Source: an uncultured Planctomycetales bacterium (lineage in GTDB: Bacteria > Omnitrophota > Gorgyraeia > Gygaellales > Profunditerraquicolaceae). From it: 50,516 bases of DNA. Of this stretch, positions 3 to 21,800 are shown one piece after another (position 1 is the first letter of the stretch; each line of letters begins with the position of its first letter). The stretch covers positions 1-50,516 of the forward strand of contig CAZAPM010000015.1 in NCBI GenBank assembly GCA_964487475.1. Reading direction: 5' to 3'. Both the position numbers and the translations under genes were made by a program. The notes beneath the pieces are model-generated. The model did no database searches. It worked only from the letters and a program-made list of their open reading frames with translations, and was not told the origin of the DNA.

Positions 3-806
3 CCCGAAACGGATCGCGGCATTGACCAGGCCATGATCGCGCGCCTGCCCCTTCTCCAGCGCCGTGCGCCAGCTCGGCAGACCGAGCCCCTGCCTGCGCG
101 CCAGCTCCTGCTCCACCGACTCTTTGCTCTGATACTTTTCCTGGCCCTTGCGGGGAAGCGCCACGCCAAAACGTTTGGCCGCGTCATCCAGCTTAGGATC
201 GGAGTGCTCCCCCTCCTCTAACGCCTTGGCGTTACAGGGAAGTCCTGCGGCGATACGGCGCGCCAGTTCGGCTTCGACCTTCTCCCGGCTCGAATATACG
301 ACCTTGGTCCCGCATTTCTCTTTTGGCAGGGTCAGTTTGAACGTCCTGACCGCGCGCAACAATCCGTAATCGCTGTGTGCTCCCCGGGCGATCGCCGAAT
401 AATGGCTGGGTATCCCGGCAGCCTGCCGGCGCGCAATTTCTGCCTGCGCCGCCGCAGCATCCGGATACTTCCTCTGCGGCTCATAAGAAGACTCGGGAAG
501 CGCCACGCCCAGCCTTACCGCAGCGCGATACAGCGCGAAATTGGTATGCTCCCCCTTCTCCAGCGCCTGCGCATAGGAATCCCATCCTAATGACTGACGC
601 CTGGACAACTCCTGTTCCACCTCCTGCCTGGTCTTATATACTGCCCGGGACGGCTTTTTCGGCAGCGCCACGCCGAACTTACGTGCCGCATACCAGAGGG
701 AAAGGTCCGCATGCTCGCTGCGCATAAGCGCGCTGGTGTGGCTCTTCCACCCCAGTTGTTCCCGGCGCGCAAGTTCTGCGTGCACGGCTTCGGCATCCGG
801 ATATGC
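3..806 (-). repeat. Second tandem array of the ~55-aa basic repeat (>=5 copies, runs off the window)
   Basis: AYPDAEAVHAELARREQLGW..EHADLSLWYAARKFGVALP and four further copies, ending LVNAAIRFG at the window edge. Confidence 0.9.
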
Positions 807-3800
807 CAGCGTGCCTCTCTTACGGCCTTCACCCGAACCTGCGGCGGCAACTGTGCCGGCGAACACAAAGACCAAAATGCCGGATATCGAGGCGAGGAGC
901 GCAGCCACCGCGATCACGATTACCAAAGGCACCCAAATACTCCCTGACTGCGCTACCGTGCGCGCGGTCAGCAGACGCTCGCAGGGCAGGATCACGGTCG
1001 TGGTCGTGCCCTGGCCGGGAGCAGAGCGCACGGTAAAACGGCCCCGGTGCAGCGCCACCGCGTCCCGCACGATCTCGAATCCCAGGCCGTGCCCGCCGGT
1101 CCCCGAACGGGAGGTGACCCTGATCCCGGTACGAATAGATTCCAGAATATGCGCTGGCATTCCCGGTCCGTTATCGGAAATGGTAACCTGCACTGCCCCC
1201 TCCTGGGGAAGCAGCCGCACCTCCAGCCGCACCTCCGGAGAAACGGTCCTGTGCTCGGTAAAAGCCTTATTGATATCTTCGAAGATATTGAAGAACATCT
1301 CCCAGATCTTGACCCGGTATCCATGCACCAGGAACGACTGCCCCGGCTCCACGATCCATACCACACGCACGCTTTTCAGAAGCCCGGCCTGGCAGGATTT
1401 CTTGAGCACCTCCCGCACATCCACGTCCGACTTAAGGCCTGCGGCGATCCCGCTGTTGATCACCGTTTTGACCTCGGTGATGATCAGTTGCAGCGCGGGC
1501 ATAACACGGCGGAAATGCTGCTGGGGGAATTCGTAATTCGGATCCGGCTCCAAAGGAATACCCATACTCTCCAGGAGACGCTCCGCGGTCCCGTACTCCC
1601 GTCCCCAGCGACGCATCGCGCTGGCAGCCCAGAAACACCTGAGCATCGCCATCCGGTACCTATGCGCGGGCAATTCTCCAGAATATTTCCGGGTGATCTG
1701 CAGCACCCGCTCCAGTATGGATTTAAGCCGGAAAAGAGGGGCTTTGACCACGGGAGCGTCGAAACAGGAAAGATCCGCCGACATCATCATGATCGCCAGA
1801 ATATTATTGATGTCATGAATGGCATACCGCAGCAAGGTAAGGTTGGAACGCAGCTTGGCTTCGGTCACGGTAGAGATGATCACCTGCCGCTGCAGGCCTT
1901 CCAGCTTCTTCCCGACCAGCTCGTACTCCGGCTCCTCCCGCTGCGCGTCGATCGCCTCTTGATGCGCCTTGCCCTCCACTTCTTCCGCATGCTCATGGCG
2001 GCCGATGGCACGCCAGACTATCAGCCGCAGCCGGGGCAAAGAAAAGTTGCTGAGAATGATCCCCTCTGCTTCGACGGTCAGATAGACCCGGTACGGCTGC
2101 CGGCGAAAATCGCCGAATATCTCGGGCAACGCCTCCGGAGCCCGGATACCCGGAAGCAGCCTGAAGAATCTTACCGGGATACCCCGGATCGACACTTCTC
2201 CGGGAACAGACAACTCCTCGGCCAGAAGTTCCCCCCGCGCCACCCACTCCAGACGCTGCGTTTTCTGCTCGGGAGTAAGATTGTTGAAGAATCCGCACTC
2301 TCGCTCTTCGGCTCTTTCCGTCCGCTCTTTTCTACTCCCGGTTTTTTCCTTGAACCTGCGCGAAAGGGCGATCGCCTTGCGTACGCTCTGCTCCATGATC
2401 GCCAGGCCCCGGATATGTCTGGAGCGCTGGTTGGCCGCGTCCATCAGCCGCTCTGCATCGCTTTCCAGGCCCACTTTTGCCGCAGCAACGAGATGCTCGA
2501 ATTTCACCCCCACCTTCTGCGCCTCATCCACGAACCGCTCGGCGATCTTCTCGGGATACCCTCTGAAATGTTCCTGCACCGCAGCGCGGGCTGACGACGC
2601 GCCGCTATTGCCCGAGACGGCGGATTCCGGTGCCGGCTGCGAAGAACGCGCCGAACGGCCGGCGCTGTCGCACGCCAGCTCGTAGATACCCGCCCATTCC
2701 CCGTGCGCGCACTCCGCGCGGCGGCTCCGGGGAAGTTCGTCGAATACGCCTAAAAGCAGCGCCAGCCTGGTGCGGGTCGCCTCCGGCACTGCCGCCACCA
2801 AAGCACCGTTGCTCAATCCCTGCGCCTCCCGGCATTGATTGAACATCTCCAGCGCCTCCCACCCCGCCATCTTCCCTTCTTCCAGCGCTGCCACCGGATC
2901 ATCCATGGAAAGAACCCCGTTGACCACTCCGTCGACGAATGCATACAGCGGCATACTGCGCAGCCACATCAGACGATGTTCCTTATGCATCATCCCGAGC
3001 ATGCGCATCACAAGGCTGCGGGCAGCGCGGCCCCATCCGTAGCGCGCTTTAAGGCTGTCCGTGCGCGCAAAGCTGGTCAGCCACAGCGCTATAGTGGCAG
3101 AAGCTCCCTGCAACGCCTGTTCCGGGATCGCTTCCAGAAGCGCCAGCGCTTCCCTGGGCTCCCCGGTCTGCATGAAACACCACGCCATGCGGAAAGCCAC
3201 CTTAGGATGATCCCTTCCCAGGGTCGCGGTATCATGATAAAGGTAAAGGAAAGGCAGGCCTTCTTCGATTGCCGTCGCCGCATCCGTCCCGAACACCACC
3301 GGCACGTCATTCTCGCAGAAATCAAGGTATATCCCGGCAAAACGTATCAGCGCACGGACGCTGATCTGATCGCGCTCCAGAAGCAGATCAAAGGTACCGT
3401 TCGGAATGCCCAGCCGCGTTTCCGCCAGCGCATATCCTTCCCCATAGGCGAAACGCGAGGAAACCAGGACCGAGAGCCTGTGCTGCCATCCCTTTGCGGG
3501 CAGCGCCGCGCCGGCCATCGCCGCCCAACCTGCTTTACCGACCTCCCCCACCAACCTTTCCTGCCTCGCCAGAAGCGTGCCGTCAGGAAGCGTTACGGAA
3601 TATTCACGGGCGGCCGCGCGAAGCGTAGTATCCTTCTCCTGCCCGCAGTTCAACGCGCCGGGGGTGCAGGCTTTTCCCTGAAGGACCCTCTCCACCAGCG
3701 CGCGCCGGACATCCTCCTCGGATGAGTATTTCTTGCGGCCGACAGGCAGCTTGACCTTGAGACGTCTCGCGGCATCAAGGAGCGCGCTGTTTCCGTGCGG

Positions 3801-6800
3801 CCCTGTAGAAAGCGCCTTATAGTGGTTCTTCCATCCGAGCTTCGCGCGCCGCTCCATCTCGGCCGTCACTTCGGCTTTGGTCTTATAACGGAAGCGGGCA
3901 GGTGCGCAAGGCAGCGGTACCCCGAAACGTTTTGCCGCATCGCACAACCCCTGGTCGGTGTGCGGGCCGCGGCGCAGCGCGCGGTAATAGCTGGGGATCC
4001 CCCTGATCTGTCTCCGGGCCAGCTCCGCCGTCACTTCCTCCCTGCTCTTGTACCGGAACGTGCTTCCCCCCGGGATCTTCGGAAGCGGCACCCCGAACTT
4101 TTTCGCGGAACGGTAGAGCTTCGGATCGGAGTGCATCCCGTTATCCAATTCCTTTGCGGTGATCGGCAGCCCCGCTTCTTTGCGGCGGGAAAGCTCGGCC
4201 TCGACCGCGATCCGGGTAGGATACGCCACCACCGGAGTCTTAGGCAGCCGCACCTTGAGGGTACGGGCTGCGCGGTAGAGTTTCAGGTCCTTATGCTCCC
4301 CCTTCTGGAGCTGCTGCGGGGTATTCTTCCAGCCTTTGCGCTTACGGGCCTTGAGTTCTGCGCGCACCGCATCCGCAGTCTTATAGAACGCGGTACTCTC
4401 GGCGGCGGGGAATGCGACCTTGAATTTGTATGCCGCGTACCTCAAAGAAAGATCCGGATGCTCGCCTTCCTCCAAAGCCTTGGGATTGCTCTGCCATCCC
4501 AACCCTGCCCTGCGGGCGAACTCCGCCTCAACCGCTTCTCGGGTAAGATATTTCGGGAGATCGGTCTTTCTCCGGGTCGGCAGGGTCACTCCGAAGTGCT
4601 TAGCCGCATTAAGCAGTGCCCTATCCCTGTGCACCCCTGCGCTTAACGCCTTGTAATGGTTCGCTTTGCCTTCCGCAGCACGCCGCGCAAGTTCCTGTTC
4701 CACTACCTCGCGGGATTTATAGGTAAGACGCAAGGCATCGGGAAGCGGAACGGAGAACTTCCTGGCCGCCCGGTACAGGGTCTCATCGGTATGATCTCCG
4801 TGCGCGAGGTCAAGCGCGGTATTGCCCCATCCGAGAGAAGTGCGGTGCTCCAGGGCAGCGGTCACGGACGCGGCATCAGGGAACCTCGGCCCCCTGCGCA
4901 CAAAGGCCACCTGCAGGGATTCCGCCTTTTTCACGCGGGAAGGGGCGGCAGGCAACGGAACAGAATATCTCGCGGCGCCCAAACGCAGAGGGATGTCTTT
5001 ATGCGCCCCGCCCTGAAGGGCCCGGTCGAAACTGGGGATCCCCTGTGCCTGCCTGCGGGCCAGCTCGGCTCTGACCTTCTCCTCCGTATCGTACTTCGCC
5101 TTCCTTATATTCTTATCCAGCACCACCCCGAACTTCCGGGCTGACTTGGCAAGAGCGTGATCGGCATGCTCACCGTCCGTCAGTGCGCGGGAATGGGATT
5201 CCCACCCCCGCGCCTTGCGTGCGGCCAGCGCTGCCATGACCGCATCCTTATCCGGGTACCTTCCAGTGATCTCGGGTAATGCCACTGCGAATTTCCTCGC
5301 GGCCTTGTACAGCGGACAATCCTTATCCTTCCCCCTCTCGAGCTTTTTGGGAGAAACCGGCAGTCCGGCGGCTTTTCTGCGGGCCAGCTCCATCTCCACC
5401 GCTTCCCTGGTAGTATATTGAGAAGGAGTGCCCGGTGCTTTCTGAGGCAGAGCGACTTCGTATTTTAGCGCCGCGTAATAGAGCGCGAAATCCTTGTGCT
5501 CTCCCTTGGTCAATCCGGCGGCATGACAAGGCAGCCCCTGCGACTGACGGAACACAAGCTGTGCCTGCACCGCTGCCGCATCCCGGTATTTGGTGCGGGG
5601 ATCGACGGTCATCCCCGCCAACAGCACCCCGGCGGCGGCACAGGGGCCGACCCAGACAAAAACCATGACCGCAAGCAGTGCAACCAGACCGGGACTTAAG
5701 AAACGCCGGATGAAGTTCTGCACCGTCTCGGGCCGCAGCTCCTGCAGGTTCGGCACGAACCCCTGGCAATAATTCCAGAACGCGCTCCCGCACGTCTCCA
5801 TCAGTTCTGAGATCCACGGCTCACCCTTGACCCTGATGAAATGATGCGCGGCCGCTTCTTCGCGCACGACACCGAGGAATCTTTCCCTGTCGGTGATATC
5901 CGCCAGAAAAGACTTGAATTCCAGCAGGTCCCGGGCCTTGAACACCACTTCGCGATTCTCATAACTGCCGGGGGGGATAGTGAAACACCTCTGCTTCTCG
6001 TCAAACTCAAGCGCCGCCCCGCTGAAGGAGAATATGCACAGCAGCTCCCCGGATCCCCTGGTCTCGACCTCTACCTCTCCGGTAAAGATCACGTTGCCCT
6101 GCGGCAGGTAACGCAAGGGCACGGGCGCGCCTATCCCCAGGTAATGCAGCACGCCGTTGCCGTTGACCCCGGGGACGCGCTCTTTTCTCAAAACGGAAGC
6201 GCGTTCCTGATGGAGAAGGAACTCCCCTGCTTCCATGACCGTAAGATTCACTCCGTCAGGAACCATGGTAAAGGGGAGCCGGCGCTGATATTCGGCCATG
6301 GTCCGCACTCCCAGGGACCCGAAGGCGAGGCGTTCGAATAAGGTCGAACCCAGCGCATACTCCTCCATCCCGTCCGTGACGCTGACCAACATATGCCGCA
6401 GCCCCTTAGGCGGCCTGCCCATCCATGATTGCTGGACGTATATTCGCAGCACGCATATCTGCTGCGAAGGTATTCCTTCCGCAAGGAGCGCTTCCACCAG
6501 ATGCCTGGCGGCGAACTGACAGTCTCCCCCGCGGACGAATACCGGGGACCGGGTCGCCAGCATCCCCCGGCAATCATGCAACCCCTGCGCGAACCACTCC
6601 CCGAACCCGTACTCATCGACCCTGGACTCCTGCGCCAACAGTGCCGCCGAGATCCTCTCCGCATCCGACACCGCCGCCGAAGCGTTCTTGATCACGCCGG
6701 TGAGGACCCCCAGGTTATATTTGAAGTGTCCCCAGACCGCATACGGATAGGCTGCCAGCCAGCTTCCCCAATATCGTTTACCTGTGCGGCGGGAGAAGGC

Positions 6801-9800
6801 ATCGTCCAAACCGCCGAACCACTCCCATGCCCTCTTCTTCAGATCGTCATAGTTCGACACCAGGGTGTGCGCGCCCATGAAACGGTACATGCCATGCGGG
6901 GAGGAGAAGAACTTGAATGGTTCCATGAGCGGCGCCCATACCAGCGCGATACCCCAGCCTATCGGACGCCTCCAGAAGTTCAGCCACCAGCGCCCGCGCA
7001 TCGACCAGCGGTAGAGCCGACCGTACCACGCAGTGCGGGCCACTCCCGGGACGGGTCCCAAAGGATCCGCCTGCGCTCCAAGGAACAGCGCTTCAAGCTC
7101 GTCCGAAGGCTGCTCCGGTTTCCACCAGCGCTGAACCACGTACTCCTCGTGTGCGGATGAAGCCGATACCGCGCCTACCGCGCCCAGCGCGTTCGATTCC
7201 CCCGGGATACTGTTGACCGCCGCACGATCCGGCGCATGGCCGGACACGAGGGCGCGCAACAGATACTGCCCGTTCTCGAATGTCCTCTGCTCGAGGGGAA
7301 GCTTCAGCAGCGCCTCCAGCATCCAGGGATATGCTTCGATCGCGGGATAGATCAGCTTCCTGCCCGTCTCCATCTCCCAGAGCGCAATGAAGGTGAACAT
7401 CTCGTCCCGGCTGGCGCGCGCGGCGGAATGGCACTCGGTGCAGACGGCGTCATCATGCATGGGAATGTTCACGAACACCTCGCGGTAACAGGATGCGAAC
7501 ACCGCATGCCACTGCGGGATGGACCCCTCCCACTCCATCACCGCCAGAAGGAAGTCTCCGGCCGTATCCGCAAGCAGCTCATCCAGCGCATCCTTCCCTT
7601 CCTGCGCCGGCGCCCGGTTGATATCGACCACGAACGCGTTGATGATGTGCCCGATCTCGTGCGCGCCTACCGCAAAGCACATCTTCGGCGCAGCGGCATC
7701 TTCGATCAGGTCCTTCCTGCCGAATTTCATGAAGGAGTTGCCGACCTTCGGAAAATCCTCCGTCAGGAATGTCTGCATCATGATGGTGTTGAGCAAATGC
7801 TCATCGAGCGCTTCGCTCGCGAACCTCGATCCGTCGCGGCGCACCAGGTCCTCCCGGATCACCAGCCATATTGCCAGCAGGAACGCTTTCCACTTCTCAT
7901 TGAGCCACACGGTCGAGTCGGGAAGCAGGTCCAGCGCGGTCGTATCCGCATGCCGGGAAAGGAGCTCCCGGGCAAGTCCCACCGCCAGGCCACGCATCCC
8001 CGATGCCGGGATCAATCCGAACGCATAGATGCGCACCTCCAAAGGAGCCTGCTCGTTAAGCAGAGTGTTCAACGCGGCCTGCTTATACGTGGATCCGGAT
8101 ATACGCGGAGACGCTGCCCCAAGGTAGCACGAGAGTTTTTCCAGCAGGTATCTCCCGTCCTCCTCCTTCTGGAACTTCCTCGCCCGGTATACCAGGCTGT
8201 TGACCGCCACCAGACGGTCATCCTTGGAAAACGCCGGATTGGCGATGATTGCGCGCAGGATATTGACGGCTTCTTTGCAGCAAAGGCCGTATCCTCCGGT
8301 AGCCAGTTCCGCAAGACTCCATATACCCTCCGACTCCTCATGCCGTTTCGTGACCTTCAGATCCCGGAACATCTTCTCCCACAGGGAAAGGTCAACGGCC
8401 TTGCCTGTTTTTGCCGCCCGGGCCAGCGCACGCGAATATACCCGAAGCAGGCTGCCGACCGCGGAATATTTCTGGTTGTTTTCCGCCCGGGCGCAAACTG
8501 CGAGTTGCTCGAGCGCCTGCGCATTACCGCCCAATGCCAGCGTTTCCAGCTGCGCCAGCCCCCTGGCGAAAGCATCCTGCACGGTCATACCGAGGAGGCA
8601 TACTCCCGCCGCAGCGACGCCCGCGCCGGGCAGCAGGGCTGAGAGCGCCGCCAGAAGACAGAGCGCCAGCACGATACCGGCGCGCTTCGCGAACCGGTGC
8701 AGAGCCTCCTCCACCGGCATAAATGGCGCCGGGACCAGTCCGGTGCCGTGCACTTCCTTGTCGGTAAACACACCCGTGAGCGCGCTCACGCCGGATCGGA
8801 ACCCTTTATCCTCCAACGTACTCCGGTACAGCCCGCGGGAGACCATCCTCTCCAGATACGGGATACGCGCCTGCTCGAGCATCTGGGATGCGGACCGGGC
8901 GATGATCCCCTCTCTTCCGGGCATATTCGCGACCAGGTAATAGACCAGGCCCTTGTACCCTACCCGCACCGGATCATGGTGGTAGGTCACTCCGGGGTCT
9001 TCGATATGAGTCCCGTCCTTGTCCAGGAATTCAAAGTTGTCCACTGCCACATCGACCATGATCCGGCGCTTCGGATGCGCGTCGCACACCCTGAGGATGA
9101 GGTCATGCCGCAGCGTGCGCACCGCCTTTCCTCCGGTTCCGACGGCAGCGCCGATCATGATACTGGCGTGCGAGAACGCGTGCTCGACCGCCTCCCAGTC
9201 GAACGCATCGATCACTTTCAGCTCACCATGAGAACACGCGCTTCGCCCGTACTCGCCGGCCAGTAAATCCTCCAGGTAAGGAATGCCGTGCTTCTTGGCG
9301 GAGATAATGACCCGTGCGCCCATGCGCCGTGCCTGCCAGAGCGCGGACAATCCCGCGGCGCCGGCGCCGGTGATGAACACTACGACATCCCTGAGCAATC
9401 CCGGCGCGCAGGCATCCGGATACGCCCCCAGCATCTGGTGCACCCACAAAGGATCCGCGAACACCTGGCCGTCGAGCAGGACCTTTTCCTCATTAAGATA
9501 AATGGCCCCTTGCAGCACGGCCTGGGCCCCGGCCACGATGCTCATAGGATCGAGACAGATATGCGTTTTAGGGAGGTGCTCCTTGGCTTTCCTGACCAGG
9601 CCCGGGACCATGATCCTTCCCGGAGCACCGGCGGAATCGATCCACTCCGGCCGCATGAAAAGCGCCGCATCCTGCGCTTTTCCGGTGATCCCTTCCAACG
9701 CGATCGCGGCGCACCCGGTCTCCAGCACCCTCTCTGCCATCGTGGGAGAGTCGATAAAATGGAAGTAGGTCATGAGCGCCGGGCCGATCGGGTCCGGCGA

Positions 9801-12800
9801 AACCCCATGCCACGCGGCATATTCAAGCAGATGCGTTACCCCTGCGGGCGTCAGCGCCACGCGGCCTTCATCGGGAAGCCGCTCCTTGACCACGCCGATC
9901 ACTGCGCGCGCCCGGGAACGGGATGTCCTGCCGACTTCCCCCATCAGGGAGAACTCGTCCGTGCCTTCAAGCACCAGCGGCTGCTTGACCTTGAGCACCA
10001 GGTCAGACCCCTCCCACACCTCACTCGCGCTCGCGACCAGGGAGGCGCCCGCATCCTCATACTCGTCATTGCTGAAGCCGCTGCGCACCCCTGCTCCGGA
10101 CTCGACCAGTATCGCGAGATCCCGCTGATCATTCGCGGTGTGCGCGGCAACGGTGCTTCCCGCAAAACACATCCCCCCGGCCAGGGAGCACACGAACGCC
10201 AACATCGCCAGCAAGGGAGTATTCCGCAGTACCTGCGCCAGACGGGAGTACACCGCATGCACGAATGAAAAATGCGCCTTGCCCACCCGGATCTGCTGCC
10301 TGAACATGGTGATGGAATCCCGCACCTCCTCATTATCCAGCGACGGGTCGTTCGGGATACGCGCTGCTGCCAGCTGGTCCGTAAGCCTGCCCAGCGTCTG
10401 CAGGTGCGGCTCCATGGCCAGGATATACTTAACCGCATCTTCTTTGGCAAACACCGGAGGCTTGTTTCCATACACCATTTCGACCATGCTGCGGTGCAGG
10501 GGAGTCCGGGAACGCACGGTGTGCAACGCTTCGCTCAACTGCTGGCCTAAGTCTCCCACGGTCACCGGTACCATATCATCAAGGTAGAAGACCAGGGTCT
10601 TCAATGCCGTATAGAGCGTGCTATCGAACTTCTCCGCGATGCATACGCATAACGCATGCGCAAAGGCCTTTATACGATGCTCCTGCGATACTATCCCTTC
10701 CGCATCCTCCCGGGAGAAAGGCCGTTTCTCTCCCTCATCCGGAGAAAAGACGAACTTCTCGCCTCCGCACTGGCGGTACATTTTCTGCAGATGCGCATAC
10801 AGCGCAGCCTGCGTGATCTCATCCTCGAGTGCCCGCTTGATCAAACGCTGGGCACGCTTCTTCAGATCCCCGGCCAACGCCATGGAAACGGTAAAGGAGC
10901 AGAGCCTTCCGTCCCGAGCCAAGCGGCTAAGCATTGCCTCTGTCTCCTGCGGGCAATGGGCTGCCATGAACTCCCGTCCGGATAAAGTCCGCGCCTGCTC
11001 TGCGGAGACACCGTCGATCATCCGCTCATCCGTACGCATGCGCCCGATGGACGCCAGCAGCTGCTCATCCGCAGAGACCACCATGCCGGCGGCCGCCAGA
11101 CCTATACCCGCCGCGGCAGGGACATTCCCCAGCAGCAGTACTATGGAGATCCCCGCCAGTATCAGGGAAAACACTCCGGCAGGAGCTGCGGCGATTACCC
11201 GGTAGAAACGGCTGGCCGCGCCGGCCGCGCGGTCGATCCAGTCAGTCCTTTTCCCGGTCAACGCGACTGTCTGAGCCCTCCGCCACGTACGCATCTCATC
11301 ATCGGAAATGTGGATATCCGCGGTGGCGATACGGGGATCGTTGCGTATGACGGTCACGGTGACAGTGCCTGCCTGCGGCCGCGAGATCTCCAGCATCAGG
11401 GGATCGACCACGGCAAAAGGAGAAGCCCCGCGCAAACGGTATATCTCCCAGGACATCGCCGAGAGCGATTCGCCGTTGATCGTCGACCAGTACGGATTAT
11501 CGCTGAACACCTGAATGCCGGCGCGCTCGCAGTACGGGAACCCTGCGACCGGCACCAGCGCCGACTCGCAGGCCTCAGCCTCGTCCAGCATCCGCTCAGC
11601 GGTCAGGGCGTCCTTACGCTCGTAATAGTATCCGGCGCTCATGCGGTACGCCAAGATCATCTGCCGGGTGAACTCGTAGAACACCGCCATATCCCTGCGG
11701 GGATTGCAGGCACGCGCATTGGCCAGGTTGGATGCGTCGAATCCCCTGCCCTGCACTCCGAACACGGCCTTGGAGCGGTCCATCAACGCCGAGGGTTCGA
11801 TCCCCCAGGACTTGATCAAAGGCGCACCGAACGCCAGTATTGCCAGGGCCTGCACGTCGACCGCCGGCAAGGTGCCGCCCGGACCGCGCCGGAACTGCTT
11901 TCCTGCCACATCCACGCAGTTGTTCCTGACCCACTGCCTGACCTTTACGGCCTCGGCGAGCGCATCTTCACGCTCCGCTGCGGTCAGGTACGGAGCGAGC
12001 ATCTGCAGGAACGCGAAATAGTCCAGATTATGCTCGGTGGAGAACTTGTCCCTCCAGAACGCATCCCATCCCATGGCGATCCCGCCGCCGGAATGAGGGA
12101 TGGAATTCTTCACCCAGAGATAGATGTTCCGCGCCAGCGCCAATGCCGCGACGTTGCCGCCGGCCTGGAAATATTTCAGGGAGAATATCCCGATCCATAC
12201 GTTCGGACCGACGTGCACGGTGGACTCTCCCCCGACGGCGCCGGTCAGATAATTATACATATTGGCGTACCCCTTGAAGCCTCCGCGGGCAGCCTGATAG
12301 TCATACACTCCTTTATAGAATGCGAAAAGTTTTGCGGCCACCGCATAGGGCGCGTTTTCCGCCAGCAGCGCAGCCAGCCCTGCCGCCGCCTGATCATAGG
12401 TTACGGCCTGCGCAGCCATGAAGGTATCGCTTGTCCCCCGGAAGCTCACGAAAAGCCCGGTCGTGGCGTTGCGGCCCAAAAGCATCGAGGCAAAGACCTG
12501 CTGCGCCTGATCAACGGACTGCGCCTGCGCCCAACGGAAACCCGCGCCGAATAATACCCCGGCCACTCCCGTCGCAGCCTTCGCGAGAAAATCCCTCCGG
12601 GAGAATCGCGATGATGCCGGGATGGACAATTGATAGGTATCCGGGACATACCGCGAATCGCCGCTGTTGTTGAACCCGAGTTTTTGCATCAGCCCGGCTG
12701 CTTCCCGGCTTACGACCCATCCCCAGGCACGGCGCAACCCCATTGCCTGCGCCTGAGCGAGCGCGGTCTTAAGCAGCCCTTCGGCGATCCCGTGCCCGCG

Positions 12801-15800
12801 CGCGCAAGGAGCGACCACCAGCTGCTCCAGTTTCACTTCGCCGTTGGCGCCGTCGAAACTCGTCGAAAGATACCCCCGCACCTTTGCTCCGGTATCCGCA
12901 TACACCCAGAGCTTCGCCTTCGCATCGCGCGTGATACGCGAGGCAAATGCGGAAGCCAACACCACCTCGCCTTCGGGAGGGATCAGCATGGAAAGTTCGC
13001 TCAATACCGGTGCATCCTCGGCGCGGGCCGGCCTTATGCCTTCGAGAGGATCGGCGTGCAGCAGGGATACGTCCATCAGGGAAACCTGGCGCGTCCACGG
13101 CACGAAGCCTGTGATCAACAGGTCATCGGAAGTCTTGCCCTGTTCAAAGAAGAATGCCCCTTCACTAGTAGCGACGATACCGGCGCTGCGGCTATAGCGG
13201 CGTACCTCCACCTGCATCTGTGGATACCTTCCGGCGATCAGCCGAAGCTGGGCATCGAGCAGAGGATCATCCCCCTGCGCCGCGTATAACACCATCTGCG
13301 CCGGGCATCCCGCGAGATCGGCGCACACCACCCGAGCCAGCTCGGAAAGCATCCCGTAACTCCCGAATCCGTCGCGTGCCCATACGTGCGCAGCCGCTGC
13401 CCTCTCCCCGTACGGTCCCTGCGCCCAGGCTGCGGCAGCAATGCAACTGGTGCACCCCGAAGTGCCCAGGACGTCCCGCGATCCGAACTCCTGCTTCACG
13501 CATGCCCATCCCTGCAGGGCATACGCCATATCCAATTCCCGGTACGGACCTCTGCTTCCGGGGACATAAGGAGAATCCGTCCGGACAAGGGTGTTCGGGT
13601 CCCTGGCGGCGAACACCCTCCACCAGCCAAGCCGCGCAAATGCGCTGCGGCTTAGGTACGCCCATACATCCTTGAGGGTAGGATACGGCGCGGACGGCAT
13701 CACCTCGAAAAACGCCTTGAGCTTATCCTCCGCCGCACTCCCCGCTCCCAATACCGCAGGCAATGCGATCCCGAGAAGCAGCCCGGCACCGAGCCCCTGG
13801 CCGAAGAGCGCGCACACGCTCGCGCCCGCCAGCAAACCCCAGAAATGGATCCTCCTCGCCACACTGCCGCGGTTCTGGATATCACCGGCCTGCACGCGGG
13901 TGAACATACCGGCTGCTCCCTGCAATATTCCCGCGAACGGCGCAGCCATAAGCCTTAGCGATCCCTGACGGACGCCTGCATGGACACTGATAAGTATGGT
14001 GCGAAGGACGGAAAGCGCGCAACGGACCAAAGAGACGGGATGGCGCATACGGGGATGCTTTTGCAGTGAAAGGAAAAGATTGCGCACCGCCTGACGCATG
14101 ACAAAAGGCGTGACAACTCCCCCTGAAGTGCTCGCACTCTTGTGCCACACCAGGGACCTGCGGGTGACCGCCAGGTTGAACCCGGCATCCACCATCCTCT
14201 GGGCCAAGTCCATTTCCTCGCCGTACGCGAAATAACGGGCATCCCATCCTCCGGAAAGACGCAGCGCCCGGGAAGACACGAGCATGCACATCCCCCGAAC
14301 CTCATCCACGCGCATGACATCGGGGAACGATTGTATATCGGTCCTTCCCGCGCCGATCGTCGAACGCCTGAATAATGCCCGGCGCATGGAACGGCCGCCG
14401 TAGTTCTGGATGCTACGTGTCGGCCGGTTGCCCTTCATCTGCAGCACCATCGGCCCGGCGACTCCTACGCTTCCCCGGTCCAGGCCGCATTCCGCGTCCC
14501 CCTCCAGGCACAATCCCACCAGAGGCTCGATGAAATGCGGGGCCACGCACATATCGTTGTTCAGGAAAAGCACGTACTCCGCGCGCGCGACATCCAGGGC
14601 GTGATCGATCACCACATTATGCCCCTCGTCAAAACCGAGGTTCACGGGACTGCGCAGCATCACTAAAGGTATCGGAGAGTACCACATCGCTCTCAGGCGG
14701 GAAAGTTCGCAGGCGGCAGAACCGTTATCCAGCACCACTACTTCCAGCGGCCGGTAAGACACGTGCATCAGACTGCGCAACAGCCGCTCCGTATCCTCCC
14801 ATCCGTTATGCACCAGGATACTGATTACCACCTTGGGAGGCCCGCGTCCGGCATTCGCTCCGTCAAATCCTACGGGGACCCGGGAAACGTACGGGTCGAC
14901 ATCGGCCATCCACGCCAGGTCCTTCTCCCAGCGTGCCCGCGCATGGGTATCCCACTCCGGCATCTGCATGAGCCTTTTCAGGAATATCGTGCGGTGCAGC
15001 GATTCCAAGCGGGTAAGCGCTGCGGATTCCTCCGGAGACAGCCCTGCCACGCTTCCGGCTACCAGCAACATCCCCGCCGCGCCGGCCAATCCCTGCACTC
15101 CGAGGAGAAAGAACATGAGCGCCAGCAACGCCACGGAGTAAATGGCCAGTTTTCCGTTGCGAAAATCGAATTTATCCGCGATACGGGAGGTGATCCCTCC
15201 CCGGGAACAATCCTGGGTCACGCGGATCATATCGATCCCGGGGACAGCCCGTAAACGGGCGAAAGCCCGATAGAACAACGCCGTACCGATCCCCCGCCAC
15301 CTCCACTGGCGGTGCACGCAGATCGCGCTGATCTCCCCTTCCCGCACCTCGGAGAACACCCGAGTGACATTGTACCCTACCACCTCCGTACCGTAGCGGG
15401 CGACCATGATCAACCCGTACGGATTTCCGGGGGTGAGGATATAGGACCTGACCGCTTCCAACCCTGAAATGAACGTCTTTTTAGGATCGGCCCCTCCCAC
15501 GAGATCGGGGGCAAAATGTTCGAACCAAAGACCCGTAATGGCCGACGCATCCCTTTCTCTCGCCTCCTCGATCAGCACATCCAAACGCGAAGGTTTCCCG
15601 GGATCGCCGTAGAAATACTCCGAGCCGAGCACGCTTCCGGCAAGCACAATCCCTGCGGCAGGACCCCATCCCAGGAAAGCGGCAGCCAGACCGGCCGCAG
15701 CCAGCAGGAAGACTGCGGAAAGCCGGGGAAACACAGAGGCGGCGATGCGGTGATAGTGTTCGGAGGGAGCGGTGGAGAACAGTTTCAAGCGGGACGGTGC

Positions 15801-18800
15801 AGGAGGTCCGCGGGGTGAATGCTGCGGCGCAACCCCCAGCAGCTGCCGGGAGAAATGCTCCCGATGGATCGCCACATAATCGACAGGGTCCAGCACCAGG
15901 ACCGCCAGGCCCTGCTCAGCCAGGTATTCCATCAACCCCTGCTTAAAGGAAGTGAAATGCGTGCACCCCAGGATGATCCCGTCATACTTTTTCAGATCGC
16001 CGTATGTTTCCAATCGCATCAACAGATGCGCAAGCGTCTCCAGGGTCTCGGCCCTCTCGATCAAGGGGACCAGTTCGCCGACCGCCAGGGAATCGACCGC
16101 GATCCCTAAGGATTCACCGATCATCTGGTAATGTCCCGAATCGACGGTCGCGGAGGTGGCCAGGAGCAGCACATTGCGGCATCCGGAAGCGCGTAGCATC
16201 TCCCTGACCACATCGCTGATACCCGATACATTCACCTGATACTGCGCTGCCAAAGCCTTCAGGGACACCCTGGTGCAGATGGTATTGCAGGCCACGAACA
16301 CCGCCCGGGCCCCGTGCGCCACCGCGGCATCCATCAGCCCGCAGGTAAGCGTATACAGCTCTCCCGTGGAACGCGAGCCATACGGGCAGTTCGCCGTATC
16401 CGATACCGCCACCACATCCATCCCCGCCTGGTGGAAGACTTTGGCGGAAAATAGCGCGCCGATGCCGGAATCGATCACCGCCAGCCTTGCGCTCGGAGAG
16501 AGCACCGCGTGCAGCGGTTCGGAAAGGAAATAGATATCGAATTCCCGCGGGTCACCATCCACTCGCGGCCAGCCGTTGACCAGCCGGACCTTATCCAGCG
16601 CCTCGGGGAAAAAGGTATCCCGCTCCGTGATCCTCATGATGCGGGCCCCGTGCGCATCAGGCTCGACCACGAACTCTCCGACCGGCATCTGGTAACCGTG
16701 ATGGTAAAGCTCGAAGTGCCGGATGGTATCGGGGTCGAAAGGCTTATCATCCTTATCCACGAACCGCACCTCGGCCAGCCCCTCAGCAGCGATCTTGCGC
16801 AGCACATGGACGACCTTGACGTTCTGCACCTCAAAGACCCGGCACATCCCGTTCCCGGCCTCGAGCAGCCTGCGCAACAGCGCTTCGGTGATCCCGGAGA
16901 CTTCGCCTACCCGGTTGATGTTCTGCAAAGTCGGGACCGCCGCGCCATGGTCCAGGGAGAAGTATGCCACCGGGGATTCCCGCGCGCCGAGCACGACGTA
17001 ACTTGCGCCCGCATCACCCACTCTCCTGACCTCGTGAAGGGTACCCTTGAGTTCCAGCGGCTTCACGAGCGCTTCATGCGCCCCGCCGACGCGGCCATGC
17101 GCCGTATCGGGATCGATCTCCTGTGCCGGCACATACCAGGCACGCTCCCCGGGGGGAAGATTCTTCCATTCCCTCGCGGAAAGCGCATGCGCGTACTGTT
17201 TCTCACCGCTGATGAAGATTTCTGCGACCGCCGCCGCCATATCACGCTGCCCCACGCGGAGTGCGGAAGATTTATCAAGGTAAGGCTTACCGTCCGCCAG
17301 GAATACCTCCAGCTCGCGGAAATATTCCGCCACCTCCGCTTCATCGATCTGCGACTCGGCAACGGCAGAGGTCTGCCTCAGGGCCTTCACGAAACAGGTC
17401 TCGGCGCGCAGCATGGATTCCGTCTCATCCAGATATTTCGAGAGCTGTTCACGCGCGTCCCCCGCCAACGCATGCAGCTTTCGGCGGATATCGCCGAATG
17501 CCACCTCCCGTGCGCTCAACGAAACGAACCGGCGTGTCTGATACTCTCTTCCGCTCATTACGCCCATAAGCACGGTCGTGATCTCATCGCGCGCATACCA
17601 GCCCAGGAATACCCGGCACGGCGAAGCCCCGGACTGACCCTGCACCTCGAAAGAATGATAGTACTGGGTCCACCGGGAAAGCGGCGGCGCACACAGCATG
17701 GTAAGCCGGGGCAGCATCCTTTCCCACTCGAAGCGGTACGCATGCGAGAAGGCGAACGCCAGCACTTCCCGCAACGGCACATCCCTGCCAGCCATCAGGT
17801 ATGCTCCCCTGTCCGTACGCAACAACATCTGCTTAGTCTGGCCGAGCGATTCGGGAGCGGTAAAGAACCGCACCTTGGCGCCCGTCTTCAGGACCTCGTA
17901 CCAGGCGGCAAGGCCGGCCATACCCGGGACCTTATGCAACTGGGGCAAAGCTTGGGACTTTTCCAGCAATCCCGCGATGGCCGTAAATCCCCTGTACTCG
18001 CGCGGCACGTCAACCACGACGTTCTCCGGCAGTTGCTCCACTCCCGCGAGGCGCTCCCGGGCAATACCTTCGAAATATCCCGCCAGCAGGATATCCTTGG
18101 CCTGCGCCGCAAGGGATATCCCGGAACCCGCAGAGGTCATCTCCTTAAGCATCGCGGCCACAAAATGCCTGTTCACCGGATACGCCGCCCATTTCCGGGT
18201 ATATCCCATTGCCGCCGTCTCCCCCATCTCGTCCGGAGGAAGATGGAATCTCTCGTGCCCGGCCAGTACGCCTACCCGCGCATCCCGGCTTAAAGAATCG
18301 AAGAAGCGCCAATGGACCATCAGCACGTGGCCCTCCGATACCTCTGCCAGCACCAGCCTGCCTCCTCCCACAACCACTACGGTATCGATCTGCTCGATAA
18401 AACACTGCTGCAGAGTATCGTTCACCCGCTCCTCCAGCTCCTCCAGCTCCGACTCCGACACCGGCTGCCGGCATCCCGTATCCGGGACCGCGGTCTCGAC
18501 CGTAAAGACGCCCTCCCGTTTCCTCAAGACGACGGTATATTTATCGACCGGCCGGCACAGCGCGGGAAAAGCCAGGCCTTGCGGCTGCCCAAAGCTGCTG
18601 CCGCGCTCAAGGCGCGCGAGCAGCGAGAAGAAGAACCGCAGGTAAAGCCGGGAATCTTCGGTAAGCGTGGAAAAATCGGAGACGTGGTAATTCTTCCGGA
18701 TGAGGATACGGCCCAAGGCGTAATCGACGAGCGCAAAATCCGGGTGAGCGGAGAATATCCCGGAAGCGCACAGCAGAAGAAGCGCATAATACTCGTTTTC

Positions 18801-21800
18801 TCCGGGATACGCTCCGAGCATGGTCAGCACGCGGCGGTGATTCGAAGCATAGAACACCTGCACCATTTGTTCGGTAAGCCTGGCCAGCCTGTCCCAATCC
18901 GCCTCTTCCTCCACCGCTCCTTCTCCCCAGGCCCAGTCCTGGGCGTGCGTGGCGAGGTAATCCGACATCAGATGCGCGCAGGTATGCGCCACCTCCGCAT
19001 TTGCGCCGTTGGCACAGAAAAACAACTGCAAGGCGGAATGCCGGGTGGAATCATACACGAATTCCGGATACCCTCGGGTCAGCGCCTCAGCCCTGACCGG
19101 GGAAACGACATCCATCAGCGCTTCCCTGGCGTCGGTGAAATTCCCCGAATCCAGGCAGATCTCGGCGATCCGCATCGAGATCAGCGGGGGACGGATGCCT
19201 CCCTGTTTCAGGGAAACACGGTAATACTCCAATGCCTTGGTCAGAAAGAACAACGCCGCCTGTTTCCTGCCTCTTAAGTCACAGATGGTCGCCAAGTTGG
19301 AAAGGCAATCCCCCGCCGTGCAAAAAGAGGACTGGATCAGCACATCCTGCCGCACCGCTTCATCCAGGTCCTCGAAATCGGCTTTGATCTGACGGATCTC
19401 CTGCCGGGCATCTCGCAGCTTGGAACGGATGGCGCGGACGTGCCCGGACCAATCGATGTCCTTGAACCTCTCCAGCGCCCAGAAAAGCCAAAGCCGTACT
19501 TCCGGGGATACCAACAGCGGATCGAGCGCCATCTGCATCAGCGCCTCGCGGGACTGCGGCCCGCCGATTATTCCGGCGGCCTTGACGCATGCGGCACGGG
19601 CGCGGTAGTACGGCTCACGCTTCAGGTGACGCGCCAGCAGGGATGCGGCGTTGCACCGTGCCTCTTCGTCACGGTACCTGGCCTGGCCCAGAAGATAGGC
19701 GGCGATCCTGCGGTCGATCTGATACTCCACCCCGTCCTTCCCCAGCACCTGCCGCAACATCTCCTGCTGCTGCGGCCTGATCTGGCCGCTGTACACCTCG
19801 TGGAATACCGCCAGAAGCAGCGCGGCCTTATACGGCATCTCCCAACCGCTCATATCCTCCACCATGAGGCCGGTTGCGGCACACACATCCTCCGGCAGGA
19901 TCCCGGGAGTCTCCCGCTTCACGCGCGTCACCAACGCGCGCGTTGCAACCACCTGCCGCAGCCTGGCCGCAGGCACTTTCTGAAGCACCCGGGTATGACG
20001 GTACAGCGCGGTAGAAAGCGCATACTGCAACGTGGAGAACTCGTCATTCATGGTGCGCACGATATCCACCATATGCACCAGGCCGCGCGTCCTCTTCAGC
20101 TCATAGATCAGAGACCACATGTTCGCCAGGGTCCGGTCCGTGATCCCTCCGGACATATGCTCGTAGGAATGATACCGGTACTTCCCCTCACAAAGCGCGT
20201 TCAGTATCTCATAACGGGCGGCATAGGCGCCTCCCACATTGGCGGTCGAGAACGGGATGAAAAGCGCGGCCCGGCTTTCGAGATTCATGATCGCGGAGGA
20301 GGTAGCGGCATGCGGGGTAGCCTCGATGACGATGGCCCCGTTGAAACGCTGCGCGTCCTCCCGGTCAAAGCTATGAGGCCATCCGGTCAGCACCAGCACG
20401 TCCGCCCGGGCATACGACTTTCCTCTCGACTCCCCTTCGCTGGGAAGGCCGTGAAGGTACGGATGATTCGATCTATACGCCTCCATCACCCCCTGCAAAG
20501 GCGCAAGATTATGGTCCTCTATCCTCTTGTTCACTTCGTGGAACAGCTGCGCGGGCACGACCCCGGAGACCGCAAAAAGTTCCAGCGCATGCGTGCGCTC
20601 ACGGGGATCATCCCGGCCCTGGATGCCGACGATCTCCATGGTCACCCTGCCGAAATAATCCTCGAAGAGCACCTTAGTGAACCCGGCGGCATATTCGTTG
20701 TTGTATCCGTGTATCGCTACCCGCAGGATATCCGGCTGTCCGTCGGGACGGTACGGGATATGTTTAAGGTACCACTCCCGCACATACCCGTTGCGGGCCA
20801 GACCCCAGGTCGCGACAAAAGGGCTTACCCCTTTAAGCTTGATGCTCCCGAACTCCGGATCGATACCCACCGCCGCAGGCAGGGGAAGGGCCAACCGGTT
20901 ATCCCTGGCTGCCGACCGCGCGGCGTCCCTGATCAACCGCATATCGCCGTAATCAAGGCGGGTACCGCGGGAAGCCACATAGCATTCTCCCAGAACCCGG
21001 GCTAACGTGACCGCCACTGCCCACTGCCTGAGCACGCGCGGCTTCATGGCCTGAGAGGACATCACGATACGCGTATACGCGCCGCTGAAAGGGCTTATCC
21101 CCAGGTGCTCGTCATCCCGGCTGCGCGCCAGCAAAGGCACCACGGAAAGGAACTTACCCCTGATCTCGCCGTAATCCGCCGCACCTCCGGCATAGAACAC
21201 GTCTACCGGCCCCTCCGCAATGACCGTCCTGGGTTGCAGTGCATTGCCGTGCAGCACGGTCAGCGCTTCGAAATCCATCCCCGAGGTCACCGGGTCATCG
21301 TGGTATACGTATACCAGCCTCCAGGGCATGCCCCGGCCCCAGAGCTGCACAGGAAGCGCCCGGATGAAAGGTTCCGGATCGAGGACAATGGCATTCGCCA
21401 ACGCATGCCTCCTGCGGAAAGGGATCTCGATCGTATCGAAGCGCACCGCGGCCCGCAGCGCCTTGGCCAACGCGTTTTTTTCCTCCTCATCCTGTATCCC
21501 GGGGACCAGGGAAGCCAGCCGCAGCAACGCCGCCTGCCTCTGCGCTTCCCCTTCCCCCTGCCCCGGCGCGTAGCTGCCGAAACCAAGCAAAGACAGTATC
21601 AGGTTGACCGCTGCGTGGGGAAGGAGCAACCCTGCCAACCACGCGACCGGCCCCATACCGGTAAGATACGCGATGGAGCAGGCACCCAGGGTCAAAATGG
21701 AGATCACCAGCTTTTCGGGGGAGAAAGCGAACTTCATCCTGGAGGAAAAAGTGGCATCGGTGAGCCCGAGCACATGGAAGAGATGCCAGGCCAGCAGCAG

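Follow-up and report, generated by a model that had tools for sequence, protein, structure and literature searches.

A conserved twin-arginine signal and glycosidase-like module deep inside a giant bacterial reading frame

A secreted-protein module within a giant frame

Why should a bacterium carry what looks like a whole secreted protein, headed by a twin-arginine translocation (Tat) signal, deep inside a giant open reading frame (ORF), and how could such a module leave the cell? The question is raised by a 50,516-nucleotide (nt) stretch of DNA (the window) that is the whole of contig C15 of genome G000, a 1.87-Mb assembly of 36 contigs that is 94.6% complete (genomes, contigs, loci and families carry our own handles, G, C, L and f). 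The features that bear on it first are the following.

3..50516, minus strand: giant stop-free frame of 16,838 codons, open at both ends
12672..12932, minus strand: GNAT acetyltransferase domain of cytoplasmic type (PF00583, E 3e-9), ending 23 residues before the signal
12522..12602, minus strand: internal twin-arginine signal (SRRDFL, weakly hydrophobic h-region, RWAQA), over the TIGR01409 cut-off and kept in orthologues
11412..12521, minus strand: six-hairpin (α/α)6 barrel of an unnamed family (TYDQ…GPNxW…STEHNLD…EFT)
11190..11408, minus strand: seven-strand C-terminal domain ending WID…RFYRV, also found at the C terminus of other secreted-type proteins
11082..11180, minus strand: recurring hydrophobic hairpin (…LLGNVPAAAGIGLAAAG, then M), a candidate junction, sitting where orthologues have a polar junction peptide

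Positions 11190 to 12629, read on the minus strand, translate as LSIPASSRF-SRRDFLAKAATGVAGVLFGAGFRWAQA-QSVDQAQQ…DWIDRAAGAASRFYRVIA. The first-pass annotation of this DNA had described a whole secreted-protein module (signal, barrel and RFYRV domain) with a well-formed Tat signal and an A-x-A site deep inside the giant ORF, and this description stands. The signal scores 18.9 to 24.1 bits with TIGR01409 (cut-off, 16.7) and is the top Tat-signal match of the genome, SRRDFLA meets 6 of the 7 positions of the S/T-R-R-x-F-L-K consensus, and the Kyte-Doolittle (KD) hydrophobicity of the h-region, KD(14), is 1.67, the median of 12 N-terminal Tat signals being 1.72. The barrel is modeled confidently as a six-hairpin (α/α)6 fold, followed by the seven-strand end domain. 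A signal peptidase I site is predicted after AQA, which would give the mature N terminus QSVDQAQQ, a start with zero basic residues. We think it likely that the module is a selected export unit, and the arrangement is real, conserved, and undescribed in the literature searched. As to the route, we favor, tentatively and with less than even confidence, release of the module from a polyprotein by signal peptidase and its export through the cell's own general secretory (Sec) machinery.

Within the C15 frame alone, the S of SRR is residue 12,639. Through a 55-nt overlap with C15, contig C22 lengthens the frame to 22,475 codons or more, which places SRR at residue 18,276; C16 starts with the repeats on which C15 ends and is probably a further part of the gene. 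Judging from its Atlas cluster and from the gene architecture, which point to the phylum, the frame is probably an Omnitrophota giant multi-enzyme gene. A contig from a second study covers the bridge from GNAT through signal to barrel (11382-13396), and a second-study contig covers the bridge from RFYRV to hairpin (11009-11394), both with zero differences. The holders of at least half of the window's words are wastewater, biogas-fermenter and sludge metagenomes from three studies; no RNA data set is among the listed holders, which is uninformative on expression either way. Three such motifs occur in the seven giant frames of G000 (57,438 amino acids; frames not chosen for the motif) versus 0.5 in local shuffles. 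Two further internal twin-arginine motifs were seen in a 7,707-codon frame (G000:C5:91307-92300, L153), namely DRRGFL, which precedes LysM plus YkuD, and GRREAL, which precedes an unnamed domain.

The first-pass annotation had also named a possible start codon for the module.

12627..12629, minus strand: in-frame TTG, the start codon named in the first-pass annotation

Initiation there would yield a stand-alone precursor. The TTG is indeed in frame, and both orthologous cassettes described below have an ATG 1 to 2 codons before SRR. However, there is no Shine-Dalgarno-like motif (GGAG, GAGG or AGGA) 4 to 16 nt before the TTG (the 16S tail was not located), no stop follows RFYRV, and the missing Tat machine would still be unsupplied. 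Nor are starts enriched before internal motifs, as counted in the phylum survey described below with one near-duplicate genome dropped: an ATG lies within 25 codons of 5 of 25 internal motifs, versus 11 of 12 N-terminal motifs and about 43% by chance, and a Shine-Dalgarno sequence plus start precedes 3 of 25 (chance, about 21%). An internal translation start is thus unsupported, and we regard it as very improbable.

Orthologous cassettes

A search with the barrel in 401 genomes of the phylum (best 150 of 195 places) gave as its two best foreign matches full-length cassettes in giant frames of 19,266 and 33,383 codons in G305 and G151, with 38% and 34% identity to the window cassette. Their signals read SRRSML…AFA in G305 and SRRQML…AYA in G151, and both combine SRRxxL…A-x-A with RRFYxV. 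The RR pair, whose lack of conservation in homologous giant ORFs the first-pass annotation had named as a refuting result, is kept in both, and the A-x-A is kept in all three cassettes (AQA, AFA and AYA), which suggests that the signal is cleaved. In G209, a more distant copy carries TRRTFL together with a lipoprotein-type Cys and lies behind a RelA/SpoT region. Among 21 further barrel copies in long frames (from 20 loci among 56 places in 40 chosen genomes), an RR leader occurs in 1, an internal Sec-type leader in 2 and an N-terminal Sec-type leader in 4, which speaks against a fixed link between barrel and signal. A stand-alone 424-amino-acid barrel homologue with an N-terminal SRRTLF was seen in G079 (L139:8288-9562, G079:C30), a genome without a tatC match.

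The two orthologous cassettes belong to family f33 and have different neighbors. Such shuffling of modules between families would fit a secreted gene captured whole from a Tat-bearing lineage, its signal now dead and its barrel cytoplasmic or idle, and decayed or empty motifs do exist: the leader of an SLT module in G305 has lost its RR, and a motif in G468 is without an h-region. The lack of an upstream junction in G000, described below, points the same way. Against such a relic, at 34 to 38% identity the SRRDFL of G000 is closer to the consensus than are SRRSML and SRRQML, the family-invariant acids of the mature module are kept (D43, E163, D167, D222, D262 and E283), two more such motifs lie in another G000 giant frame, one of them before LysM-YkuD, and the motif appears to be under selection in Tat-less genomes elsewhere. 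We consider a relic improbable.

Junctions

In G305 and G151, recurring junctions lie on both sides of the module. The peptide NAAV stands 15 to 18 residues before the RR, and NSSV or TNAA follows directly after RFYxV. The cassette sits between copies of a repeated NxAV peptide. The next module in G151 is a protein kinase, with no hydrophobic segment in between, and an uncut exported chain could therefore not keep the kinase cytoplasmic. Projected onto G000, the downstream junction of the orthologues falls on the hairpin behind RFYRV and the upstream junction on DSRYVPDTYQ, which holds no motif, so that G000 has only the downstream hairpin. Because G000 lacks an upstream junction, the signal's own A-x-A site may be the one that is cut. 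Proteolytic release, one of the options in the first-pass annotation, thus fits the junction peptides that bracket the orthologues and fails to find an upstream counterpart in G000. No short polar junction is enriched in the G000 giant (SSP occurs 9 times versus 5.3 expected; ASSP, NAAV, GARL and AGLEE are absent), and a search for gapped motifs there returned domain repeats only.

The hairpin is 30 to 35 residues long, ends …P-x-A-A-G…L-x-G with M or S next, and recurs in the window and in G000:C16. Its approximate copies in the window are as follows.

38514-38606, 35247-35348, 26361-26456 and 15621-15725, minus strand: hairpin copies
15039-15149, 11082-11180, 8586-8687 and 5610-5702, minus strand: hairpin copies

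In C16 the hairpin precedes the same kinase module as TNAA does in G151 and G305, at exactly the same place. We read the hairpin as a replacement for the polar junctions that other lineages have; P-x-A-x-A, in the turn of the hairpin, looks like a site for signal peptidase I. A profile built from 8 seeds recovered the seeds and one new C16 copy, with none in 1.27 million control residues; it is narrow, and several hairpins seen by eye were missed.

More widely, four giant frames hold 12 internal motifs, of which 10 lie no more than 40 residues behind the junction of their lineage, where 1.2 would be expected, the junction patterns having been read from the same proteins. Where Pfam names the families that follow internal motifs (7 of 22 downstream pieces), they are of envelope type: SLT, GH2/GH72-like, subtilase and LysM-YkuD. 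Some twin-arginine motifs (L121 in G468:C14 and L124 in G289:C37) are followed by hardly any cargo, or none, up to the next SSP junction, and these possibly represent the birth or decay of modules.

Barrel and C-terminal domain

A first model of the barrel had a predicted local distance difference test score (pLDDT) of 77; a second reached a pLDDT of 90.6 and a predicted template modeling score (pTM) of 0.86, and shows the seven-strand C-terminal domain as separate. Compared with known structures by VIA-align, the first model gave tied matches to GH15-like proteins, an epimerase and MmpH (Z 28 to 31, 8 to 12% identity). The module thus shares its (α/α)6 barrel with the six-hairpin glycosidase superfamily (GH15-like 9ju0 and 5z3a, cellobiose 2-epimerase 5zig, MmpH 7qsj and GH76), with Z values of 26 to 31 and root mean square deviations of 3.0 to 3.6 over about 300 to 335 residues across the superfamily, and differs from these structures in its 8 to 12% identity and in having no Pfam or NCBIfam family. 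GH76 scores only E 0.6 or worse, and a search of PDB sequences gave no significant match. Because the matches to GH15-like proteins, cellobiose 2-epimerases and MmpH are tied, the barrel is no more than likely, going by its modeled fold, to be a glycosidase. The "glycan-degrading enzyme" of the first-pass annotation accordingly keeps a glycosidase-like fold; the activity itself is a suggestion from that fold, which epimerases share equally well. The barrel family occurs in 169 of the 401 genomes, mostly in PilZ-coiled-coil membrane proteins, one of which is in G000 itself.

The end of the RFYRV domain lies no more than 10 residues from the C terminus in 21 of 32 profile hits, and in 9 of 18 among proteins of at least 300 amino acids; several hits are large Ig/cadherin/Calx-beta proteins. 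Since this domain usually forms a C-terminal end, the cassette has both a natural start and a natural end. The first-pass annotation noted a likeness to C-terminal motifs of secreted PVC-superphylum proteins; the nearest Atlas clusters are of Verrucomicrobiota (score 0.89), which we take as a lead only. Neither the barrel nor the RFYRV domain gave a longer homologue in word searches, which are weak tests, and the RFYRV-plus-hairpin piece gave a single weak match over 101 relatives.

Secretion machinery and the phylum survey

Judged by the assembly, which has no match for tatA or tatC, the cell has no Tat system of its own to export the module. Neither PF00902 nor PF02416 matched in G000 (controls, 11 of 14), and family-level TatC and TatA profiles run against all six frames gave nothing below E 0.8; in a genome that is 94.6% complete, this absence is not proof. 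SecA, SecY and signal peptidase I are present. The single SecA match of G000 lies in an ordinary 993-codon frame, and there is no SecA-like or C39/S8 domain in the window part of the (incomplete) giant gene.

Could tat genes lie in the unassembled part, the module then being an ordinary or Class V-like substrate inside a giant? The 36 contigs and the completeness leave room for this, and in the family, which has 59 members, 7 genomes carry a tatC that exceeds the cut-off. In four relatives (L066 to L069: G225, G179, G235 and G296), tatC is part of a hydrogenase-type island that includes its own N-terminal substrate (gene names from sequence reading), and the truB-like neighbor of that island has no match in G000 either. 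On the other side, the island's small subunit, tatC and tatA are all without a match in G000, and the gene that flanks the island in two relatives has other, contiguous neighbors there. Moreover, the only two TIGR01409 matches of G000 lie in giant frames, and it has no ordinary Tat substrate. We give a missed tat locus hardly any weight. In families f1 and f27, where tatC is present (also L109, L110, L112 and L126), it adjoins one dedicated substrate, like an accessory island; by sequence reading, these substrates are a hydrogenase-type small subunit and a DUF362-like protein.

Across the phylum, 67 of the best 150 of 596 TIGR01409 matches in the 401 genomes lie in frames of at least 2,000 codons; among 30 loci listed, 20 are internal and 10 N terminal. 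Over 23 giant frames there are 30 motifs versus 1.3, a figure that is inflated, most of these frames having been picked for a Tat hit (one G000 giant frame was dropped by overlap, and the figure for G000 given above comes from the seven-frame count). tatC is present in 53 of 62 genomes with hits on ordinary frames and in 28 of 47 with giant-frame hits, the baseline being 210 of 401; a Fisher P value of 0.004 for this tracking overstates it, because kin are not independent. Family f27 has tatC in 4 of 22 genomes, and ordinary hits over the cut-off occur in exactly those four; its giant-frame hits occur in 8 genomes, 7 of them without tatC, including the single-contig G149, which is also without tatA. 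Four f1 genomes with internal motifs likewise lack tatA.

A search with the mature SLT domain found 11 copies, all in giant frames, of which 6 have RRxFL (5 of these 6 without tatC, two being near-identical) and 5 have plain leaders (4 without tatC). Within one genus, the SLT leader reads QSRFLK in G305, which has no tatC match, and SRRRFLK in G151. Between G149 and G103, both without tatA and tatC, the 21 codons of the motif show 6 synonymous and 1 amino acid change, whereas the h-regions show 21 and 21 in 69 codons and the mature parts 187 and 168 in 775; a binomial P value of 0.04 for this conservation again overstates it for related genomes. Four tatC-negative genera share RRxFLK without variation at 34 to 55% identity between their mature domains. 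From these comparisons, RRxFLK looks to be conserved by selection between Tat-less genomes.

Route of export

In the reading that we tentatively favor, the cassette is one complete module among the unrelated proteins that make up a giant chain. The internal signal would lead the barrel across the membrane by way of the cell's own Sec translocase, signal peptidase I would cut between AQA and Q and so detach the barrel from the GNAT module ahead of it, and the hydrophobic hairpin behind RFYRV would either be cut in turn or anchor the chain in the membrane. What results would be a carbohydrate-active enzyme outside the cell, with the predicted fold. Because no tat genes were found, own Sec is the most likely route. 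Paired-arginine signals are reported to be compatible with Sec (PMC7317946), and the same cargo families bear plain Sec-type leaders in 5 of 11 SLT modules and in 6 of the 21 further barrel copies in long frames. The lack of basic residues at the mature start QSVDQAQQ also speaks for Sec. Sec is thus the simplest route, and the cargo families tolerate Sec leaders.

Several observations weigh against this reading. No junction motif precedes the signal in G000, and 14 of the 21 further barrel copies have no leader in the upstream stretch read. The h-region, at 1.67, is as weak as those of true Tat signals (1.72), RR-less SLT leaders having values of 1.84 to 3.09. Paired arginines are reported in only 0.02% of Escherichia coli Sec signals, and low hydrophobicity together with C-terminal basic residues is reported to make Sec release an internal helix (PMC7317946); the window signal has one Arg C terminal of its h-region. 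Sec does not explain the selection on RRxFLK in Tat-less genomes (the 6 synonymous changes versus 1).

That selection would be accounted for if the signal were a true Tat signal read by the Tat machine of a prey cell. Fragments of the giant protein would pass into the cytoplasm of the prey, fold there, leave through the prey's TatC and attack the envelope from inside. The giant genes would then be effector polyproteins that are cut in the prey cytoplasm, their internal RR signals being addressed to prey Tat. The weak h-region would also be explained, giant-frame motifs do not track the cell's own tatC whereas ordinary-gene motifs do, and in f27 the giant-frame hits of seven tatC-negative genomes include the single-contig one that lacks tatA as well. 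The twin-arginine motif is reported to be read by bacterial and archaeal TatC alike (PMC13673990). Open cytoplasmic contact with prey (cited there from another paper) and predator RNA in prey cells are reported for a cultivated Omnitrophota predator (PMC13153191), and delivery of this kind fits the cytoplasmic contact. Co-delivery might also explain why a bacterium with operons should use a polyprotein. However, a putative step of delivery into prey is required, RR-less Sec-type versions of the same cargo exist, and the G305 SLT leader has lost its RR in a genome without a tatC match. Tat needs an energized membrane, which an opened prey may lose. Related genomes are not independent of one another, and tat may have been lost repeatedly and recently. 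We therefore regard prey Tat as a possible but doubtful destination, and the view of the giant genes as effector polyproteins addressed to it as equally so. If true, it would be a new predation strategy, in which a Tat-less predator has its victim export enzymes that attack the victim's own envelope, and it would explain why the bacterium needs a polyprotein.

Selection on the motif without TatC would also be explained by a factor of the cell's own, such as a chaperone, a SecA-like domain of the giant or a very divergent translocase, that reads RRxFLK and routes folded modules out. Giant proteins have been reported with their own divergent SecA-like domains (10.1101/2023.11.21.568195). No candidate emerged in G000, where the TatC and TatA profiles gave nothing and the sole SecA match is in an ordinary gene, and we consider such a factor unlikely.

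Relation to known systems

The signal shares S-R-R-x-F-L, a weak h-region, A-x-A and a score over the curated cut-off with Class I Tat substrates (TIGR01409, PF10518), and differs from them in that it is not N terminal, lying at residue 18,276 or later, and in that no translocase of its own was found. The first-pass annotation took Tat signals to work near a free N terminus; internal ones are, however, known from Class IV (actinobacterial Rieske) and Class V (FecR) substrates (PMC13673990; PMC7317946), in which an internal RR signal lies behind domains or membrane segments and a folded C-terminal domain is exported. The window module, with a GNAT domain just ahead of SRR, shares this layout. 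Class IV and V proteins as described there have an uncleaved signal, are small and single-function, and have a resident TatC, whereas the window signal has an A-x-A site, is more than 18,000 residues deep with thousands more after it, and comes from a genome in which no tat genes were found. A cleavable internal RR signal in a giant multi-protein frame lies outside the five listed Tat substrate classes.

Polyproteins of the flavivirus type and Bradyrhizobium FbcH are also single frames, cut by signal peptidase at internal signals to give products on both sides of the membrane; their signals are hydrophobic and of the Sec/signal recognition particle type, and their products are few. One frame and internal signals are shared by the window giant, in which cleavage is putative.

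Omnitrophota giants of the "Archaeovorin" type (10.1101/2023.11.21.568195; 10.64898/2026.06.07.730766) have, like the window giant, a very long frame with many hydrophobic segments, and both contain glycosyltransferase, NUDIX, GNAT, HAD, kinase, peptidase and hydrolase domains; glycosyltransferase, hydrolase, peptidase and NUDIX occur together in the one window frame. The surveys of this type suggest cleavage and note a GH76-like fold in one giant. The first gives the cleavage points as unknown, and the second discarded internal signal-peptide calls as artifacts. Twin-arginine signals go unmentioned in the main texts of both, although the supplements may list such calls, and in the open papers searched, preprint supplements aside, internal signals of this kind in such giants go unreported, as do Tat signals directed to the Tat machinery of a host.

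The cassette bears on the question of how proteins of 20,000 to 150,000 residues are made and used in Omnitrophota. To it the cassette contributes an exact predicted mature N terminus, QSVDQAQQ, where the two surveys, in their main texts, give no cut sites or internal export signals. It also poses a puzzle, that of Tat-type signals seemingly under selection in cells without tat genes; either Sec or a factor of the cell's own reads the RR motif, or the signal is meant for the machinery of another cell.

Other features of the giant frame

Two further features flank the cassette.

13731..13817, minus strand: closest hydrophobic segment upstream, hairpin-like, some 380 residues ahead of the signal
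8808..10124, minus strand: alanine dehydrogenase-like domain, NAD dependent and of cytoplasmic type, downstream behind a hydrophobic segment (10149-10220)

Ahead of the GNAT domain, positions 12933 to 13730 encode a domain with GTSGCTSC and without a Pfam match, reminiscent of CheD-type deamidases. A complete-looking M50 (site-2) intramembrane protease lies inside the giant frame at about 42100 to 42600 and is a candidate cutter of hydrophobic junctions. A tandem repeat of about 55 residues (Y…AELARR…G…ALxxGEHxDxxLYxAARKFGVxLP) occurs at 3 to 716, at about 3700 to 5600 and at the start of G000:C16; it has no Pfam match, and the assembly breaks inside it. Elsewhere in the genomes surveyed, open frames of 54,392, 44,145 and 28,499 codons were seen in G235:C6, G091:C1 and G212:C3.

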